DNA of 64,000 bases from Chthoniobacterales bacterium (GCA_026418675.1 JAOAAX010000009.1:1192-65191); one strand, 5' to 3'; positions 49,363-60,454 are shown, counted from the stretch's first letter. The notes: generated from the letters alone by a model not told the origin. Translations and numbers: made by a program.

Positions 49363-50133
49363 ATGGCCAAAAAAAAACATGATGCCCATCATGGCGGTGC
49401 ATGGAAAGTGGCTTATGCTGACTTCGTAACAGCAATGATGGCACTTTTTATGGTTCTTTGGATACTATCCCAACAACCAGAAATCATTGAAGCTACTGCC
49501 CGATACTTCCAAGACCCTTATATCGCTTTTGCAAACAAAGGCTCTGGTGTTATGGACGAATTCGTCGCTGGCACAAGAAAAGAGTCATCCTCTGAAAATC
49601 CAGAAATCACTCAAAACGAAGGCTTCTTACGTGCTGTAGCTCGTGATTTTACTCGCCTCCTTAATATCAAAACTGAAGAAAATAGCCCAATCGAGGTCCA
49701 ACTCACTTCCGATGGCCTCAAAATCACTATGTATGATCGCCCAGATAAACCTTTATTTAACCCTAAAACCGCTGAACTCACCGATTGGGGTAATTTTGTC
49801 CTCCAAAACCTTGCTTGGTTAATTGAGCGATATAACTTCCGTGTATTCATTGATGGTCATACCGCAAAATGGACTGAGCAACCCGATTCCAAATATGGCC
49901 CATGGGAACTCAGTGCGGACCGAGCTAATTCGGCACGCCGTGCCCTAGAACGTTACGCAGTAAATCCCAAAAAAATCGAACGCGTAACAGGCTATGGGGA
50001 CACTTCTCCCATTCCAGGAGAAGACCCCACCTCCACTCGTAATGAACGTATCACCGTTAGCCTCTCCGCACTTCCTGACATAAATCTTGAAAACCTTGCC
50101 GAACCATTCCCAACGCCTAATCCCCAATCCTGA
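49363..50133 (+). CDS. motB: Flagellar stator protein MotB (OmpA-like C-terminal domain)
   Basis: HHGGAWKVAYADFVTAMMALFMVLW with the conserved Asp. OmpA-like domain ends in TGYGDTSPI...NERITVSL. Confidence 0.88.
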   Translation: MAKKKHDAHHGGAWKVAYADFVTAMMALFMVLWILSQQPEIIEATARYFQDPYIAFANKGSGVMDEFVAGTRKESSSENPEITQNEGFLRAVARDFTRLLNIKTEENSPIEVQLTSDGLKITMYDRPDKPLFNPKTAELTDWGNFVLQNLAWLIERYNFRVFIDGHTAKWTEQPDSKYGPWELSADRANSARRALERYAVNPKKIERVTGYGDTSPIPGEDPTSTRNERITVSLSALPDINLENLAEPFPTPNPQS

Positions 50134-50136
50134 ACC

Positions 50137-50388
50137 ATGCGCAATTTTCTCGACAATCGTCCAAAAATCCCCACACCAAACACCCAGCATTCTCAATCCA
50201 ATCCACACACACTCCCAACTCAAGGACTAAACAAAATTCTACCTTCTTCTTCTATCATTCATCAAACCGATACTTCTCACTCTGAGTTCCCTCGCATCGA
50301 ACTTTCGCAAGATTCTGAAGGCCGAATCTCCGAAATCCGCCTCCATTGCCGCTGCGGTGAAATGATTACTCTCCGTTGTATTTACTAA
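50137..50388 (+). CDS. Small hypothetical protein with a C-terminal HCRCG...C motif
   Basis: 83-aa ORF starting 4 nt after the motB stop. Disordered Pro/Thr/Ser/Gln-rich N-terminus and C-terminal RISEIRLHCRCGEMITLRCIY. No SD. Coding status uncertain because stops are rare on this G-poor strand. Confidence 0.35.
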   Translation: MRNFLDNRPKIPTPNTQHSQSNPHTLPTQGLNKILPSSSIIHQTDTSHSEFPRIELSQDSEGRISEIRLHCRCGEMITLRCIY

Positions 50389-50496: not shown

Positions 50497-53235
50497 TTGC
50501 CATACAAAAAAACATTTCTATTCAAAAAAACTGTTTCCCAGCTTTTACTGTTCTTTTTAGCCTCCTCCTTTCTTTCCTCAAGCTTTCCCCAATTAAACCC
50601 TCGTGATTCCTTTCCAAATCCTTCTCCTTCTCTCCTAACAGCGGCTCAAACACTTGCCGATGCCGCCCGTCAACTTCCAGATTCCCTCCAACTATCTATA
50701 CTTCGCCCAGCACTCGCCTTAACCATTCTCGAACAGTACTCCAGGATACTCCCAGATGACCCCCCCCTAACCGACATTCTTTACCTCATAAATCTTCTCT
50801 TATCCCACTCCCCAGAACCACATCTACTCCAAAACTACCTCTCAAAACTTCCTCCAGCCGACTCCATCATCTTCAATGGACATCAGCTCCTCGGCGCAGC
50901 CTTAGCACGTCCCGACAATCTCATCGGTCTCGACTCATTGCCCATCGCTCTTTCTCGTCGGATTCCCGCTCTCCTCTTTCCCCTCCGAAATGATCAAGCC
51001 CCTCTCCTCACCCAATTTGTCCAAACATCAAGTTTTTCCCTCTCAACCCTCCGCACAAGAACTCAAAACTTTTACCAAGCCCCAATAGCCGATCTCCTCT
51101 TCGCTGACGGCCTTTTTCTCCGACCCTATTCGGGAAAAATAGACGATCTATATGTCCACTTTGTTCAAAAAAATCATACTTTGCTATCCATATTATCATT
51201 TTATGCCATAGCCGAATCCCTCCCAGCAAGACGCTATTCCCCAATAACCGGCATCGGCTCTCCCCTCTCGGTCCCAACTCCTTGGTTTAATGTTAACGAC
51301 ATCCTCTCCGGTGGCGCTCTCCTTGCAGTCGAACAATACCGCTCCTCCCACCAAACCCCATCCTCCATACCAAACCCATTTTCAAACTTCGCCATCCGCA
51401 TCCTCCCTTACCTAGATTCCTCAATTAATTCCCTCCAACCAGGCTCTACTCTCACAATCTCCCGTGAGTTAATTCGACAAGCCATCCGCCACCCAAAACG
51501 TTTCTCTCCTAAACCTGTCCCGCCAATCCTTAATGACCCATCCAGATTTTTTGGATCTTATAGTCCAATTTTTCAGCTCGCTTCACGCCGCCTCTCCCGC
51601 AAAGAGCTCGCTACTGCAATCCGCCAAATTGATTTCGAAACTCCTTTACCGGACATACCAGCCACACCTTCCGCTAACGAACTCCTTGCAGAGCCAACTT
51701 CCTGGGCACCCGCCTTCTCTGAAGATGAAATCCCTCTCTTACCCCAAGAGGAAAACTCTCTTTCAGAAGAATTGGCATTTACTCCCCCTCCCCAAAACCC
51801 TTCACCTCCACCCACAAAACGCGTTGAACCCATTTACCCCGAACCCATCCTTCCTAAAACTCCAACCCAACAACCCAATCAATCTAAACCTCAAAAAAAC
51901 ATCCCTTCTCCACTACCATCCGAACCCCCACTCGTCGCAACCCTCCCAACTTTTTCTATTCAAAATCAGATAATTACATCTAATTCTGTTGGACAACATT
52001 TCTTGCCACAAACCCAAAATTCCAGCACAACGCAATCTCTAGCCGCACCTTTTTCTCTCCCCAACCCCATCTCTCAAGAAACCACTTCCAATTCAACAAA
52101 CCCCTCCCCTCCACCACCATCAACCTTGCTCGCCCAAATCCCCTCCCCCCAATCCAAAATTCCTGAATTATTGCATAGCGACAATCCTACTGCCGAGGAA
52201 ATTCCTCAACCACCCCCTATTCCTAATCCTCAGTTAACTTTACCTTCCCCGTCACCTCACCGCCTCACTCCCACTCAAAGCCCAACACCAACTCCAAACC
52301 TACCACTCTCATTACCCCAAGAGAAAGCCTCTCCATCCGAACTGCCAGCTCCTTCTTCCTTACTTGCATCCCTTTTATCCCCAACAGAACCACATAGCTC
52401 CCCCATTCACCTCTCTTTCTACCCTACCAACACACTCCTCCCACCACAGCCTTACCAAACGTCTCTTGACTTGGTCACCGCCAAAACTTCTATTCCCCTT
52501 GCTTCCCCTACTCGCCTCGAGCCCCCCTCCTCTCTCCTCCAGCCCTCCATACACCCAATCCCAGCGCAAATCCCCAAACCAGACTTTACCATAAACTCAC
52601 TCCCACCTCAACCTTCTCCACTCACCAACCTTTACTCCTCTCTAACAACAAGCAACTTCTCCGAATCACCCATTACATTCAGCTTACTCCACCCCATTTT
52701 ACTACCACAAACATCCATACCAAAACTCCCGCAGCTCGAACAAATCCTCCCCACCCTTGCCGCATCCGCCCCAACCCCCACACCTCCACAACCCAAACCA
52801 ACCAAATCCGAACCCATCCAGCTTCCAGATTTTTCCTCCGCTCCCTATGTTGCTATTGTCACCCCAACCATTGAAGCCTGTGAATCCTACACAACGGCAC
52901 TCGCTGCTAACGACCAAGCTCTCTCAACACTCCTCTCCCAACTCAACCGCACCCAACTTTACCTCCGCTGGCTCGACGCCGCTACTACACCCCTTGAGGA
53001 ATTCCTCGCTCAAAACCCCAACCTCCCTGAGTCAGTCATAGCACAAATCCATCTCGCCATTAATCTTTCCACCGACGAAATGGCTCGTCTCCTTCAACTC
53101 CGCACCGAACTCCTTAGGCAACGCCAAACCCTCCTCGCTCAGCGCCAAGCACTCCAAATCGAACTCAACTCTAACCTTCAAAAAAATCTCCACTTCCTTC
53201 AAAAAAACGCGCTCGGCTCCTCCACAGGCGCCTAA
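50497..53235 (+). CDS. Large (912 aa) secreted or membrane-anchored Pro/Ser/Leu/Thr/Gln-rich protein with a C-terminal coiled coil
   Basis: The only long ORF in any frame across 2.7 kb; minus-strand ORFs there are under 90 aa. Hydrophobic N-terminus (QLLLFFLASSFLSS), a central segment of about 400 aa that is very Pro-rich, and C-terminal heptad-like LLQLRTELLRQRQTLLAQRQALQIELN. TTG start, no SD. Confidence 0.55.
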   Translation: MPYKKTFLFKKTVSQLLLFFLASSFLSSSFPQLNPRDSFPNPSPSLLTAAQTLADAARQLPDSLQLSILRPALALTILEQYSRILPDDPPLTDILYLINLLLSHSPEPHLLQNYLSKLPPADSIIFNGHQLLGAALARPDNLIGLDSLPIALSRRIPALLFPLRNDQAPLLTQFVQTSSFSLSTLRTRTQNFYQAPIADLLFADGLFLRPYSGKIDDLYVHFVQKNHTLLSILSFYAIAESLPARRYSPITGIGSPLSVPTPWFNVNDILSGGALLAVEQYRSSHQTPSSIPNPFSNFAIRILPYLDSSINSLQPGSTLTISRELIRQAIRHPKRFSPKPVPPILNDPSRFFGSYSPIFQLASRRLSRKELATAIRQIDFETPLPDIPATPSANELLAEPTSWAPAFSEDEIPLLPQEENSLSEELAFTPPPQNPSPPPTKRVEPIYPEPILPKTPTQQPNQSKPQKNIPSPLPSEPPLVATLPTFSIQNQIITSNSVGQHFLPQTQNSSTTQSLAAPFSLPNPISQETTSNSTNPSPPPPSTLLAQIPSPQSKIPELLHSDNPTAEEIPQPPPIPNPQLTLPSPSPHRLTPTQSPTPTPNLPLSLPQEKASPSELPAPSSLLASLLSPTEPHSSPIHLSFYPTNTLLPPQPYQTSLDLVTAKTSIPLASPTRLEPPSSLLQPSIHPIPAQIPKPDFTINSLPPQPSPLTNLYSSLTTSNFSESPITFSLLHPILLPQTSIPKLPQLEQILPTLAASAPTPTPPQPKPTKSEPIQLPDFSSAPYVAIVTPTIEACESYTTALAANDQALSTLLSQLNRTQLYLRWLDAATTPLEEFLAQNPNLPESVIAQIHLAINLSTDEMARLLQLRTELLRQRQTLLAQRQALQIELNSNLQKNLHFLQKNALGSSTGA

Positions 53236-56777: not shown

Positions 56778-57926
56778 TTAACCCTTCAGCCTCATCACCT
56801 TCCATCCCATCTTCCCTGCCATATCAAGTATCCCCTCCCTGGCTGTCGCAGCTATAACCTGACTCCCCTCAAGCAAAATCCGTAAAACTCTTTCGGTCCG
56901 TTCACCATCCAACTCTGCTATCACATCATCCATCAGCAAAATCGGACTCTGCTTGCAAACCTCAATCAAAATAGCTGCCTGCGCAAACCGTAAACCTAGC
57001 GACAAAGTTCGCTGTTGCCCTTCCGAAGCATAATCCCCTGCGCTTCTACCATTTATTAAAACCGCAAAATCATCCCGATGCGGCCCCAAGGTCGTCATCC
57101 TCAATAGCTGATCCTCCTCGTAATTTTCCCGCAATCTCTTCAATAGTTCACTACCTCCCGAGGGCAGATAATTCACCTCGACATTCTCTACCCCATCCGT
57201 TAACCAACGCACAACCTCATCCGCCCGTTCCTTCACCTTAGGCATTACCCACTGTCGGCACTCCTGCAATCGTTTCCCCAAACCCGCTAACGGCTCATCA
57301 AATGCTTCAACCTCCGCTCGCCTTGCCCCCATTCGCAACAAATAATTCCTTGATCGCAGCGCCCTCTCGTAATCCCGCAAAACCTTCAGGTAACCAGGAA
57401 ATAACTGCGAGCAGAGAAAGTCCAAATATCTCCGCCGCATTGTTCCCGAACCCCGCACCAATTCCCGATCCTCCCCGGAAAACCAAACCACCCGCCCCAA
57501 ACTCAGATACCTATCGCTATCCCTTACACAATCCCCATCAATCCACAACCGTCGCCCATCCTCCCCATTTTCGACTGCTAGTCGAACTCCCCTCTCCCAT
57601 CCCCCCTCTCCGATTTCCACAAAGTCCCCTTCCAAACAAAAATTCCTCTCTCCCCATGCCACGCACGGCCCAGGCTTTGCGCTCCGTGGCGACTGCAAGC
57701 GCAAAACCATACACACCGCCTCAAGCAAACTCGTCTTCCCCACTCCATTCCTCCCAACCACGAGGTTCAACCCTGCTCCAAACTCAAACTCCCCCTCGCG
57801 GTAACACCGAAAACTTCGTATCCCTAACCTCCGAACCTCAAATCTCTTTGCCCCTCCGTAACAAAAAACCCGGAAAGACTCCCCCTCTCTCTTATCCCCC
57901 ATATCCAAAGCAGCATCATTTCCCAC
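56778..57926 (-). CDS. recF: DNA replication and repair protein RecF
   Basis: LGIRSFRCY...LNLVVGRNGVGKTSLLEAV (Walker A), the signature SEGQQRTLSLGLRFA, and Walker B ILLMDDVIAELD. It has an N-terminal extension of about 25-33 aa compared with typical RecF. Confidence 0.88.
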   Translation of the reverse strand: MGNDAALDMGDKREGESFRVFCYGGAKRFEVRRLGIRSFRCYREGEFEFGAGLNLVVGRNGVGKTSLLEAVCMVLRLQSPRSAKPGPCVAWGERNFCLEGDFVEIGEGGWERGVRLAVENGEDGRRLWIDGDCVRDSDRYLSLGRVVWFSGEDRELVRGSGTMRRRYLDFLCSQLFPGYLKVLRDYERALRSRNYLLRMGARRAEVEAFDEPLAGLGKRLQECRQWVMPKVKERADEVVRWLTDGVENVEVNYLPSGGSELLKRLRENYEEDQLLRMTTLGPHRDDFAVLINGRSAGDYASEGQQRTLSLGLRFAQAAILIEVCKQSPILLMDDVIAELDGERTERVLRILLEGSQVIAATAREGILDMAGKMGWKVMRLKG

Positions 57927-57990
57927 TACCGAAGAACGTCACCTCCCCCAAAACTCCATCCGACCTGAAAAAACTCCCACAACTCCCACA

Positions 57991-58440
57991 TTATTTCCAC
58001 ACCTCCTCCTCCTCAAAATCGACACGATACCTCCGAAAAAACAACCTCATCTCCTCCTGAAAAGTCCGCTGCCGATGGTGTTCCTCCTGCCGAAAAATAT
58101 ACTCTGATACTTCTCGAACCTTCGACGCCGAAACCGAAAAAGCTCCATAACCCTCCTGCCACTGAAAATGGGTCATCCCATATCGCTTCCGTATCAACCC
58201 TGCTGACCGCTGTTTCAACCGCCGTATCGCTTCAACAAGACTCATTTCCCTCGACAATATAAACAAAGAATGAACGTGATCGCTCACACCGCCAGTCCGG
58301 ATGGACGGACATCCCATCTGCTCCAAAATCCGCGCCATCCCTTGGTGAAGTTCCCTCAGCCACTCCATCTGCAGGCAGGGCTCCCGCAACCTCGTCGAAA
58401 ATACTACATGCACATAGAGCTTACTTAATTCGCACCTCAC
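57991..58440 (-). CDS. IS200/IS605-family Y1 (HUH) transposase of the RAYT/COG1943 type
   Basis: LYVHVVFSTR, the HUH motif SDHVHSLF, and WQEGYGAFSVS with the catalytic Tyr region. GTG start. No partner tnpB and no obvious flanking hairpin ends. Confidence 0.82.
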   Translation of the reverse strand: MRCELSKLYVHVVFSTRLREPCLQMEWLRELHQGMARILEQMGCPSIRTGGVSDHVHSLFILSREMSLVEAIRRLKQRSAGLIRKRYGMTHFQWQEGYGAFSVSASKVREVSEYIFRQEEHHRQRTFQEEMRLFFRRYRVDFEEEEVWK

Positions 58441-58557
58441 AGTCTGATCCCAAATTATCCTCCGCCATTTTTCCCTATCTCAAGCAAATTCTCAGTCCTC
58501 TCCAATACGTCTTTCCGTCCTTTCCATTTGTTCCACTTCTCACCCACCCCTCTTTAC

Positions 58558-58591
58558 AAAAAACTGGGCCCCCTTTCTTTCGGGAGCCCAG
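58558..58591 (-). terminator. Rho-independent terminator after the Cys-rich peptide gene
   Basis: Minus strand reads CTGGGCTCCCGAAAGAAAGGGGGCCCAG (GC-rich stem) followed by TTTTTTG. Confidence 0.78.
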
Positions 58592-58635
58592 TTCGTATTT
58601 CGCTTTTTTAAACAACTAACTCCGCTGCAGGGATC

Positions 58636-58794
58636 TTATTGGCAACCAGGGCAATTCGCACAATTATCTCCGCAGCAAGTCTTGCAAGCTTTCTCCTTGC
58701 AGCATTTCGCACAGTTGGGGCCTTTATTGCCCCCCTCTGCAAAGGCTGGAACCGCTGCAAGAGCAAGTAGAATTGCAATGATTATTGATTTCAT
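58636..58794 (-). CDS. Unannotated 52-aa secreted cysteine-rich peptide (9 Cys in a predicted 33-aa mature part)
   Basis: Own translation: MKSIIIAILLALAAVPAFAEGGNKGPNCAKCCKEKACKTCCGDNCANCPGCQ. AAGGAA lies 6 nt upstream of the ATG. Sec-type signal with an AFA-E site. Its own terminator lies 44 nt downstream. Below the 60-aa cut-off of the ORF track. Confidence 0.6.
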   Translation of the reverse strand: MKSIIIAILLALAAVPAFAEGGNKGPNCAKCCKEKACKTCCGDNCANCPGCQ

Positions 58795-58865
58795 GCGGAT
58801 TTCCTTTCTTTTAAAAGTTTCCTCCTAGTTCCGGCCGAAGTAAACTCCGGCCCCGACGGCTAACT

Positions 58866-59282
58866 TCACGTCCTTACCTTCGGAGGTGGAGAGGGAGGCC
58901 GATGGCGAATTGAACTTAACCGCTCCTCTCGATTCTCTAACGCTTTCTTCCCAGTTGAATCCAATACAAGAGCATCCTCTCCACAAACAAAAACTTTTCC
59001 TACAAAACAACTCACAACACAGGGCAAACACACACATTCCCCACCCACAACTCCATCATCCTTGGAAAGATTCTTTCCCAACTCCTGCTCACAACAGCAA
59101 CCTCCATCACCTCCACAACAATACTCCACACCGACACGAACTTTTACCTCCGACTTAGTCTCAAGACACGTCCCTGCTCTCACCCAACTATTTACTACAC
59201 CAAAAATCACAACGACAATTAATTGCACAATCCACTTCCCTGTCCACAATCTTGCCTCTTTACTCTTAGGACTCACAAACAT
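58866..59282 (-). CDS. Hypothetical single-pass membrane protein with a Cys-rich domain (11 Cys)
   Basis: 138-aa ORF between the ABC ATPase gene and the Cys-rich peptide gene. TM segment WIVQLIVVVIFGVVNSWV, then EYCCGGDGGCCCEQE and ECVCLPCVVSCFVGKVFVCGE. A His-rich ORF on the opposite strand (58886..59158) competes, so coding strand and status are uncertain. Confidence 0.35.
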   Translation of the reverse strand: MFVSPKSKEARLWTGKWIVQLIVVVIFGVVNSWVRAGTCLETKSEVKVRVGVEYCCGGDGGCCCEQELGKNLSKDDGVVGGECVCLPCVVSCFVGKVFVCGEDALVLDSTGKKALENREERLSSIRHRPPSPPPKVRT

Positions 59283-59329
59283 GAAAGAGAATATACATGC
59301 ACTTTACCTAACCGCAACTCCCTCCGCCC

Positions 59330-60454
59330 TCATTCAGGATAAATTCGCTTCGACGACTCTGGATCAAATAAATACAACCGCTCCGGATTCACTTCAAAAT
59401 GCACCCGATGTCCCACCTCCCTCCGGTCCAGTTCCTCTCGACTTCTCGATACTAGCGTTACCTCTCCAATATTCATATACACCATAGACTCCGCTCCAAG
59501 CGTCTCCACAAACTCTACAGTCGCCAAAAACGTATTCTCGTTCGGCGCTTTCCCAATCCCTAACGGGCTAATATCTTCAGCCCTCATTCCCAGCAGCAAA
59601 TCACGCCCCATCCACCGACTCGCCCCATTAAAATTCGACATCGAAATCCTAAAACTATCCACATCTGCTGCTTGGAAATAAATCCTCCCCCCCTCACACC
59701 GCAAACTCCCATGCAGAAAATTCATCCCGGGCGTCCCAATAAAACCAGCCACAAACACATTCTCAGGCCGCCGATAAATCTCGATTGGTGTCCCATATTG
59801 CTGCAACTCTCCATTATGCATGACCGCGATCCGCTCCCCCATCGTCATCGCCTCCACTTGATCATGCGTCACATACACCATCGTCGCCTGCAACCGCTGA
59901 TGCAACTTCAGCAACTCTGTCCGCATCTGTGCACGCAGCTTCGCATCCAAATTCGACAGCGGCTCATCAAACAAAAATGCCTTTGGCTGCCGCACAATTG
60001 CTCGCCCTACTGCCACACGCTGGCATTGCCCTCCCGATAACGTCCCCGGTTTCCGGTCAAGAATATCCGTTATCCCCAAAATCCCGGCTGCATCCCTCAC
60101 TCGCCGGTCAATCTCACTCCGGTTCACCCCCCGCAATCGCAACCCGAAAGCCATATTCTCATATGCCGTCATATGCGGATACAACGCATAGTTTTGAAAC
60201 ACCATCGCTATATCGCGGTCCTTCGCAGGTGTCCCATTCATAACTCGCCCGCCGATCCGAATCTCCCCGGTCGTAACCTCCTCCAAACCAGCTATCAGCC
60301 GCAATGTCGTCGTCTTCCCACAGCCAGACGGTCCTAGCAAAACCACAAACTCCCTATTACAGATTTGTAAGTCCAGTTTCTTGACCGCTTCAACTCTCCG
60401 TCCGCCACTCCTTTCAAAAATCTTGCTGACTCCTACTAACTCGATCGTTGCCAT
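59330..60454 (-). CDS. Sugar-type ABC transporter ATP-binding protein (MalK/UgpC/MsmX family)
   Basis: GPSGCGKTT, LSGGQCQRVAVGRAI and FLFDEPLSNLD, plus a C-terminal regulatory (TOBE-like) domain. GAGGAG RBS. Confidence 0.92.
   Translation of the reverse strand: MATIELVGVSKIFERSGGRRVEAVKKLDLQICNREFVVLLGPSGCGKTTTLRLIAGLEEVTTGEIRIGGRVMNGTPAKDRDIAMVFQNYALYPHMTAYENMAFGLRLRGVNRSEIDRRVRDAAGILGITDILDRKPGTLSGGQCQRVAVGRAIVRQPKAFLFDEPLSNLDAKLRAQMRTELLKLHQRLQATMVYVTHDQVEAMTMGERIAVMHNGELQQYGTPIEIYRRPENVFVAGFIGTPGMNFLHGSLRCEGGRIYFQAADVDSFRISMSNFNGASRWMGRDLLLGMRAEDISPLGIGKAPNENTFLATVEFVETLGAESMVYMNIGEVTLVSRSREELDRREVGHRVHFEVNPERLYLFDPESSKRIYPE

Follow-up and report, generated by a model that had tools for sequence, protein, structure and literature searches.

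A two-gene cassette encoding a small, cysteine-rich peptide with an export signal (peptide B) behind an exported leader-like protein (gene A) was characterized computationally in a 64,000-nucleotide stretch of DNA from a Chthoniobacterales bacterium (GCA_026418675.1 JAOAAX010000009.1:1192-65191; hereafter the window), where both genes lie on the minus strand. Peptide B is a real, conserved gene of Verrucomicrobia, and it is the distal gene of a conserved cassette with the order promoter, gene A, hairpin, ribosome-binding site (RBS) and B, terminator. Judged by its motifs, spacing and likeness to known systems, we lean towards a cassette that joins metal sensing by gene A to sequestration of metal by the thiolates of B in the periplasm, with copper as the most likely metal. 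The B family and its pairing with a leader resembling CutF are undescribed in the literature and databases searched.

Peptide B and its gene

The open reading frame (ORF) of peptide B (58636-58794, minus strand) encodes 52 amino acids with the translation MKSIIIAILLALAAVPAFA / EGGNKGPNCAKCCKEKACKTCCGDNCANCPGCQ, exactly as an initial annotation of this DNA had read it. A Shine-Dalgarno-like element, GAAAGGAA, is positioned at 58801-58808 (minus strand), 6 nucleotides (nt) before the ATG, where the same annotation had placed an RBS. The N-terminus, MKSIIIAILLALAAVPAFA (58738..58794, minus strand), has the n/h/c layout of the Sec-type signal peptide that had been proposed, with a Lys, a 13-residue hydrophobic core and A-F-A at -3 to -1; cleavage after this putative signal peptide was assigned by the -3/-1 rule. 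The remaining codons, with the stop codon (58636..58737, minus strand), would yield a mature peptide of 33 amino acids containing 9 Cys (27%) in an array of [C-x2-CC] x3 type, and re-translation returned the spacing originally described, C-x2-CC-x4-C-x2-CC-x3-C-x2-C-x2-C, without change.

Structure prediction for B with AlphaFold2 (AF2) gave an overall predicted local distance difference test score (pLDDT) of 65, with values of 66-79 across the Cys region and a short helical turn at each CxxCC. A sequence search of the PDB gave no relative of B or of gene A. An NCBIfam match of B to PtrA (E 0.054) was discounted because it spans the signal peptide only, and DUF4148 matches of some B-family peptides were discounted because they arise via the signal region.

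Conservation of peptide B

Homologues of B were collected by an exhaustive phmmer search of 1.84 billion representative proteins, followed by a profile search and then by a scan of metagenome DNA. Four proteins of 47-59 amino acids and of the same build were returned by phmmer (E 1.9e-7 to 3.5e-4), each with a signal peptide and then KGPNC.KCCKDK.CK.CCGD.C..C..C. The profile search yielded 13 strong (E 1e-12 to 1e-18) and 4 weaker members, and the metagenome scan 12 further loci carrying B. The family thus assembled comprises about 25 distinct homologues of 46-61 amino acids from metagenomes and from Verrucomicrobiota metagenome-assembled genomes (MAGs), the named carriers being MAGs labelled Terrimicrobiaceae, Verrucomicrobia and Spartobacteria. 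A word-indexed protein search with B alone gave nothing, because too few 5-mers are shared, and scans of genome collections (species representatives) with B and with RecF gave no relative.

Exactly 9 Cys were counted in the mature part of 25 of the 26 tabulated sequences (window included), in the family arrangement C-x2-CC-x(3-6)-C-x2-CC-x3-C-x2-C(C)-(x2-C). All nine Cys positions of B are kept across the family alignment; conservation of this pattern, for which the initial annotation had suggested hidden Markov model (HMM) searches and whose lack it had named as grounds for refutation, extends over about 25 homologues. The Cys-rich core is without aromatic residues in 26/26 sequences, counting only Phe, Trp and Tyr, the one Tyr seen being located at the uncertain cleavage boundary of a weak member (P0018), and no Cys-rich mature peptide contains Met. 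Mature peptides are 27-41 amino acids long with 22-33% Cys and a net charge of -1 to +4, rich in Lys, Asp and Glu and nearly devoid of hydrophobic residues. Their signal peptides are divergent in sequence, all being of the form MK-hydrophobic-AxA, and the Cys scaffold is fixed.

Pooled over the family, the proportion of synonymous differences (pS) in the B coding sequence was 0.52, with synonymous sites near saturation, and that of nonsynonymous differences (pN) was 0.22. Conservation of the Cys together with a pN well below pS therefore shows that the B frame encodes a protein held by purifying selection and did not arise by accident from low-complexity sequence.

Two variants of the family were also recorded. 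A sister group of weak matches (P0017, P0019 and P0020) carries a purer repeat, [C-x2-CC-x3] x3, ending in CCK, and P0018 has 11 Cys, owing to an extra N-terminal C-x4-C-x4 segment.

Gene A, the ORF upstream of B

Gene A was found by aligning the regions upstream of B across loci and listing their ORFs. In the loci compared, 550-660 nt without a called gene precede B, and wherever the upstream sequence is long enough, with L013 as the one exception, a same-strand gene A is present there. Its product has 104-113 amino acids in most loci and 138 in the window (58866-59282, minus strand), and the gene ends 63-85 nt before the B ATG.

Other gene A proteins have only 13-25% identity to that of the window. 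Shared among them are an N-terminal hydrophobic export signal with an AxA-type end, a CCC (or CC-x2-CC) motif, a CxCxxC(P) motif and a Trp; the window protein carries CCC at 59091-59099 and CxCxxC, in the form CVCLPC, at 59019-59036 (both minus strand). The first two Cys of CxCxxC never vary, at least 90% of sequences retain the third, and one subgroup has CxC-x5-C instead; in CCC one Cys is invariant and two are nearly so. The tail PPxPPP(R/Q/K), exactly 3 residues and the stop codon follow one another in 15/15 sequences; the window has PPSPPPK at 58878-58898 (minus strand) in this position, and the L001 protein ends in PEPATPPPRSAA. Spacing from CxxC to PPP is 42-45 residues (12 sequences), or 45-48 when counted from the second Cys of CxC.

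An AF2 model of gene A placed a helix at residues 7-38 (pLDDT ~90) and predicted the remainder to be disordered, and the ratio of nonsynonymous to synonymous substitution rates (dN/dS) was 0.3-0.6, with quick evolution outside the motifs. Such disorder and fast evolution outside the motifs are expected of a sensor leader rather than of a folded protein. Eight matches to gene A were present in the protein database, including the window's own entry (P0022), all of them hypothetical proteins from metagenomes or Verrucomicrobia-labelled MAGs. A Metallothio_11 match in 3 gene A members (E 0.003) was discounted as reflecting Cys composition only.

Predicted control elements of the cassette

A sigma-70-like promoter (59290-59317, minus strand) precedes gene A and consists of TTGCGG (59312-59317), a 16-nt spacer and TATATT (59290-59295). 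The gene A start codon of the window lies 7 nt past the -10 hexamer, and with a start codon so near the -10 the gene A mRNA would therefore be leaderless or nearly so. The arrangement TTGNNN-16-TANNNT, with the start codon at a distance of 6-7 nt from it (15 nt in L006), was found in 11/12 scanned loci and in 9/10 distinct ones, the exception being L011, which has too little upstream sequence. The position of this element is conserved, and its sequence suggests that it would serve as the promoter of both genes.

Between the two genes, an intercistronic hairpin, GGCCGGAG-TTTA-CTTCGGCC (58833..58852, minus strand), starts 13 nt past the gene A stop codon in the window. Nine loci have a hairpin at this place, 12-15 nt downstream of the gene A stop, and 4/6 consensus pairs show compensatory changes. 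At the RBS position of the other loci, a GAAAGGAA- or GAAAGAA-type element is conserved. The polyproline codons (CCUCC; 58878-58898 in the window) are predicted to pair with a downstream GGAGG only in the window (58822-58827) and in L011 (375-480); the pairing GGAGG of L011 is the RBS of B, and that of the window is located 27 nt upstream of the ATG, apart from GAAAGGAA. This pairing may be an anti-Shine-Dalgarno arrangement particular to the subgroup formed by the window and L011. A further candidate, in which the PPR codons would form a hairpin with the three final codons of gene A, appeared in some loci (L010, L019 and L020), was inconsistent, and was dropped.

Downstream of B, an intrinsic terminator (58556-58594, minus strand) is formed by a 13-bp G+C-rich hairpin and T6, beginning 41 nt past the B stop codon. 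Its predicted fold has an energy of -31.6 kcal/mol (z = -4.4; 0/200 shuffles as good), and it is conserved in 10 loci with compensatory changes in 6/12 pairs. The hairpin-plus-T6 terminator of the initial annotation is therefore upheld. The accompanying claim, that B occupies its own RBS-to-terminator cassette, was correct for the RBS and the terminator and has to be amended at the other end, as the unit begins at the promoter upstream of gene A. Simple consensus scans had overlooked both the terminator and the promoter, whose -35 is only TTGCGG, and Rfam searched over 57900-59400 at E <= 1 gave no known riboswitch or leader.

Proposed function and alternative readings

Two described types of leader provide the frame for interpreting gene A. 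CutF of Rhodobacter capsulatus (cutFOG operon) is a Sec-exported, nascent-chain periplasmic copper sensor of 118 amino acids with the arrest motif PEPEGPPPRL (PMC9973294; bioRxiv 10.1101/2025.02.05.636593), and its periplasmic CxxxC binds copper before the chain leaves the ribosome (PMC9973294). CutF-like proteins have been delimited as those with <150 amino acids, a signal peptide, a PP motif in the last 15 residues, a Cys motif and a same-strand downstream gene <100 nt away; the spacer, mostly <100 nt, has a stem-loop shielding the RBS of the downstream gene, and members with a Cys motif mostly head copper-homeostasis genes (PMC9973294). For DUF2946, the hallmarks listed by Roy et al. are a CXXC, a distance of ~45 residues (within 1-2) from it to a C-proximal Pro arrest motif, three residues after the arrest motif, and an export signal (PMC9426467). 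CruR (Bp2923) of Bordetella pertussis is a DUF2946 copper-responsive upstream ORF, through which copper represses a TonB-dependent transporter via Rho-dependent termination (PMC9426467).

Set beside these descriptions, gene A proteins are 104-138 amino acids long with hydrophobic N-termini, they contain a CXXC-type Cys motif separated by 42-45 residues from a C-terminal polyproline motif, and they are followed on the same strand, after a spacer of 63-85 nt with a covarying hairpin, by B, the RBS of which lies outside the hairpin. By this likeness, and leaving DUF2946 membership aside, gene A most likely works like the CutF/CruR nascent-chain sensors.

According to the mechanism proposed here, the signal sequence of gene A would lead the nascent chain through the Sec translocon, and CCC and CxCxxC would reach the periplasm; the ribosome would then be 42-48 codons further on, at PPxPPP(R), four codons before the stop. 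Binding of metal at the gene A Cys, or their failure to form disulfides, would by analogy with CutF and CruR alter the length of the polyproline pause, and the pause would govern in cis the expression of B, 63-85 nt downstream, the presumed direction of regulation being towards switching B on. RBS unmasking, Rho-dependent termination as in CruR or another route are possible relays between the pause and B. Once exported, B, with 30-33 residues and nine Cys in three triads of C-x2-CC type, would bind soft metal ions in the periplasm through its thiolates, as a buffer or sponge, either in a Cu(I) cluster or in an M(II)3Cys9 cluster like that of a metallothionein beta-domain.

A role for B as a metal buffer is favored because of its metallothionein-like composition, its invariant, odd number of nine Cys and its position behind a CutF/CruR-like leader. 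The odd and invariant Cys count also argues against a purely disulfide-bonded fold. The family agrees with the operational definition of a metallothionein, being small, with 22-33% Cys in CxxC and CC and with no aromatic residues in the core. Among the three options raised by the initial annotation (a periplasmic metal buffer, a disulfide-rich signal or toxin, and a RiPP-like precursor, that is, the precursor of a ribosomally synthesized and post-translationally modified peptide), the buffer is the best supported, with metal binding by B inferred from these resemblances.

Several observations weigh against a function in metal sensing and sequestration. Shielding of the RBS by the hairpin was tested by folding and found unsupported: the conserved hairpin excludes the RBS of B, the mean unpaired probability of which was 0.44-0.86, and the unmasking known from CutF was not reproduced. 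For gene A, Pfam gave no DUF2946 match in 11 members at E <= 10, and NCBIfam gave no CopL-type or DUF2946 match at E <= 1. For B, Pfam and NCBIfam gave no meaningful match, with no metallothionein family at E <= 10, and Foldseek with the AF2 model, itself of moderate confidence, gave no structural match. In L013, B is present without gene A, and among the loci examined the cassette has no conserved functional neighbor, metal-homeostasis genes included. Finally, the oxidizing periplasm tends to convert CxxC pairs to disulfides.

The alternative that survives best retains the same architecture with a different use, namely copper-repressed acquisition or delivery of metal, in which B would capture or escort copper, or another metal, that is in short supply in the periplasm, for instance for cytochrome oxidases. 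CruR-type DUF2946 leaders shut down a copper-uptake operon in the presence of copper (PMC9426467), the L006 cassette stands directly after a cytochrome oxidase cluster (COX1, FixO, COX2), and a hairpin upstream of the RBS fits transcription termination as well as it fits RBS unmasking. We nevertheless consider acquisition unlikely, since the gene A motif is PPPR, as in CutF, and not the RAPP of CruR, oxidase neighbors occur in only one of ~12 distinct loci, and nine thiolates in 30 residues resemble a high-capacity sink over a single-site chaperone.

Peptide B could also be a bufferin-like RiPP precursor, with its Cys modified (e.g. to thiooxazoles) before Sec export by an MNIO encoded elsewhere. 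Bufferin and other MNIO precursors stand out among RiPPs by their Sec signals and Cys motifs, they act on copper stress, and some precursor genes stand alone (PMC12452194); however, the order of the bufABC genes is reported to be strictly conserved (PMC12452194), and no adjacent MNIO (DUF692) or DUF2063 gene was found in the neighborhoods examined, those of the window, L001-L009 and L022. Nor did B match DUF2282, Buf_6/12Cys or an NCBIfam bufferin, and mature B consists of nearly nothing other than Cys and charged residues, without a recognizable core or recognition sequence. The RiPP option of the initial annotation is therefore disfavored by the lack of an adjacent maturase in any locus examined, and we regard a bufferin-like precursor as quite improbable.

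Little credence is likewise given to B as a disulfide-knotted bacteriocin, signal or toxin with gene A as a membrane-anchored immunity or partner protein. Such an assignment would suit a small, secreted, Cys-rich peptide whose partner is itself small with an N-terminal hydrophobic segment, and it would suit the movement of the B-plus-terminator module between genomic contexts (see below). Against it, the Cys count is odd and invariant at 9, with 11 in one member, and the mature peptide has no aromatic and almost no hydrophobic residues, with a net charge of only -1 to +4; the near lack of hydrophobic residues makes the knotted signal or toxin of the initial annotation a poor fit. Moreover, gene A is predicted to be disordered and is fast-evolving except for Cys and polyproline motifs at fixed spacing, which an immunity role would not explain.

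The possibility, raised by the initial annotation, that the B ORF has no function and simply results from local low-complexity DNA has in its favor only that the ORF is short and without a gene call in this genome, and it is refuted by a Cys pattern held across homologues with saturated synonymous sites (pS 0.52 against pN 0.22), by the conserved RBS and covarying terminator, and by the calling of B genes in NCBI MAGs.

Genomic neighborhood and annotation

The genes flanking the cassette vary by locus: DnaE in L001-L005, the oxidase cluster described above in L006, MacAB-type and CzcB-type efflux genes in L007, and an ABC-F ATPase in L022. In the window, an ABC sugar-transporter ATPase is encoded upstream and an IS200-type transposase and RecF downstream. 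The cassette is thus conserved while its flanking genes are not. The transposase gene, encoding an IS200-like Y1 transposase (57991-58440, minus strand; Pfam Y1_Tnp, E 1e-21), is situated between the cassette terminator and recF and may be linked to local rearrangement.

B is missing from the protein collection, in which gene A of the window is present as P0022, and its description as unannotated holds for this genome. The family, which the initial annotation did not recognize, is new to Pfam and NCBIfam, although some members had already been deposited as hypothetical proteins: B homologues are annotated in three NCBI MAGs under that name only, and in one NCBI MAG locus (L022) A and B are both called, side by side. 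Gene A is uncalled in the ENA/Logan metagenome loci L001-L009. Starts are often misplaced, a false upstream start stretching several B entries to 94-100 amino acids, and several gene A entries being truncated or given a long spurious extension at the N-terminus (P0025, for instance, begins within the signal sequence). The entries concerned in miscalling are P0008, P0013, P0015, P0016, P0020-P0024 and P0028.

Strand composition and probable exchange of the B module

Composition of the window switches abruptly at ~50,000 (49,900-50,200), where the sequence contains no Ns, at the 3' end of a MotB/OmpA-family gene (49363-50133). To the left, the G+C fraction (GC) is 0.37-0.47 and GC skew about -0.2 to +0.13; to the right, GC is 0.47-0.52 and GC skew of the plus strand is -0.4 to -0.6 whatever the direction of the genes. 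Third-position skew in the right-hand part is +0.67 to +0.74 in minus-strand genes and -0.63 to -0.76 in plus-strand genes (about 0.7 in magnitude), with an evident excess of W/G/R/V or P/S/T/L in the encoded proteins. The switch might reflect a chimeric join in the assembly, a boundary left by recombination or a mutational regime that is unusual and strand-specific; a literature search turned up nothing relevant on extreme GC skew in Verrucomicrobia. The right-hand part also contains a 912-amino-acid ORF (50497-53235, plus strand) with one Cys codon, a coding-strand GC skew of -0.61 and no Pfam match at E <= 1e-5.

Gene A of the window is fully skewed, with 10 TGT and 1 TGC among its Cys codons. 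The B gene resists the local skew: third positions contain 8 G and 13 C, against expected values of 18.2 and 6.9 (P < 5e-5; codon usage compared with 7 neighboring minus-strand genes), its Cys codons are 7 TGC and 2 TGT, and its synonymous codon usage comes close to that of genes in the left part, which is non-skewed. The interval ~58,560-58,950, from the terminator to the polyproline codons, is the only non-skewed patch in the skewed region.

In L013, B and its terminator (260-480) are at least 95% identical in DNA sequence to those of L012 and L022, in an unrelated context and with no gene A. Identity begins just before the ATG and ends just after the terminator, and the preceding unrelated ORF ends ...CSQCGQIVPYVIGCPDGAEVCRACFEAGQH. 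From these limits it follows that the B-plus-terminator unit can move or be replaced by recombination, and the sequences suggest that it has been exchanged in this way. The non-skewed patch of the window may derive from such an exchange; the alternative is codon-level selection on TGC in a highly expressed gene.

Significance and comparison with known systems

If the proposed function is true, an exported metallothionein-like peptide would open a further level of metal handling in the envelope, and the CutF/CruR-like pairing would extend a recently discovered principle of control, by which an exported nascent chain detects a ligand beyond the cytoplasm and stalls its ribosome, to a new phylum, Verrucomicrobiota, to a new motif combination (CCC + CxCxxC + PPxPPPR) and to a new type of regulated gene. 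A and B are both often missed or mis-started by gene callers. Being tiny and self-contained, the cassette is easily synthesized and tested and could serve as a metal-responsive expression or sequestration part. A bolder claim, to which we give somewhat less than even credence, is that B would represent the first Sec-exported metallothionein-type family in bacteria and the cassette, at ~750 bp, the smallest self-contained metal sense-and-sequester module, in which a leaderless CutF-like nascent-chain sensor, detecting periplasmic metal across the membrane by means of polyproline stalling, would switch on an exchangeable nine-thiolate sponge-terminator unit.

In composition, B is like the metallothioneins (SmtA/BmtA, MymT and animal beta-domains): it is tiny and Cys-rich (27-33%) with CxxC and CC, has Lys beside Cys and lacks aromatic residues. 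Animal metallothionein beta-domains have 9 Cys, the number found in B, and form M(II)3Cys9 clusters. Unlike the known bacterial metallothioneins, which are cytosolic, B has a Sec signal, and it has no sequence match to any metallothionein family. Those bacterial metallothioneins that have been reviewed are cytosolic (PMC7558416); for an exported or periplasmic metallothionein, nothing relevant was found in the literature searched, where the phrase 'periplasmic metallothionein' occurs in no paper. As a proposed periplasmic, Cys-based binder of soft metal, B is like Csp1 and the bufferins, and bufferin precursors also use Sec signals. Csp1, unlike B, is a Tat-exported four-helix bundle of ~120 amino acids, and bufferins, unlike B, need adjacent MNIO and DUF2063 genes.

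Gene A is like CutF in size (about 105-140 against 118 amino acids), in its Sec-type export signal, in the Cys motif of its mature part, in the C-terminal PxPxxPPPR shortly before the stop, and in the downstream gene <100 nt away with a stem-loop in the spacer. It differs from CutF in having no detectable DUF2946 HMM match and in carrying CCC and CxCxxC in place of CxxxC, and the cassette differs in that its hairpin is off the RBS and its target is a Cys-rich peptide of ~50 amino acids and not a multicopper oxidase. The phylum of gene A, Verrucomicrobiota, is unmentioned in the main text of the CutF paper (PMC9973294), and a literature search for DUF2946 in Verrucomicrobia yielded nothing relevant. 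With CruR, gene A shares a CXXC ~45 residues ahead of a C-proximal proline motif, three residues after that motif, an export signal and a place at the head of a small operon; the motif itself is PPPR in gene A and RAPP in CruR. The cassette is thus new relative to the two known kinds of system that it resembles, metallothionein-like binders and CutF/CruR-type leader-controlled operons.

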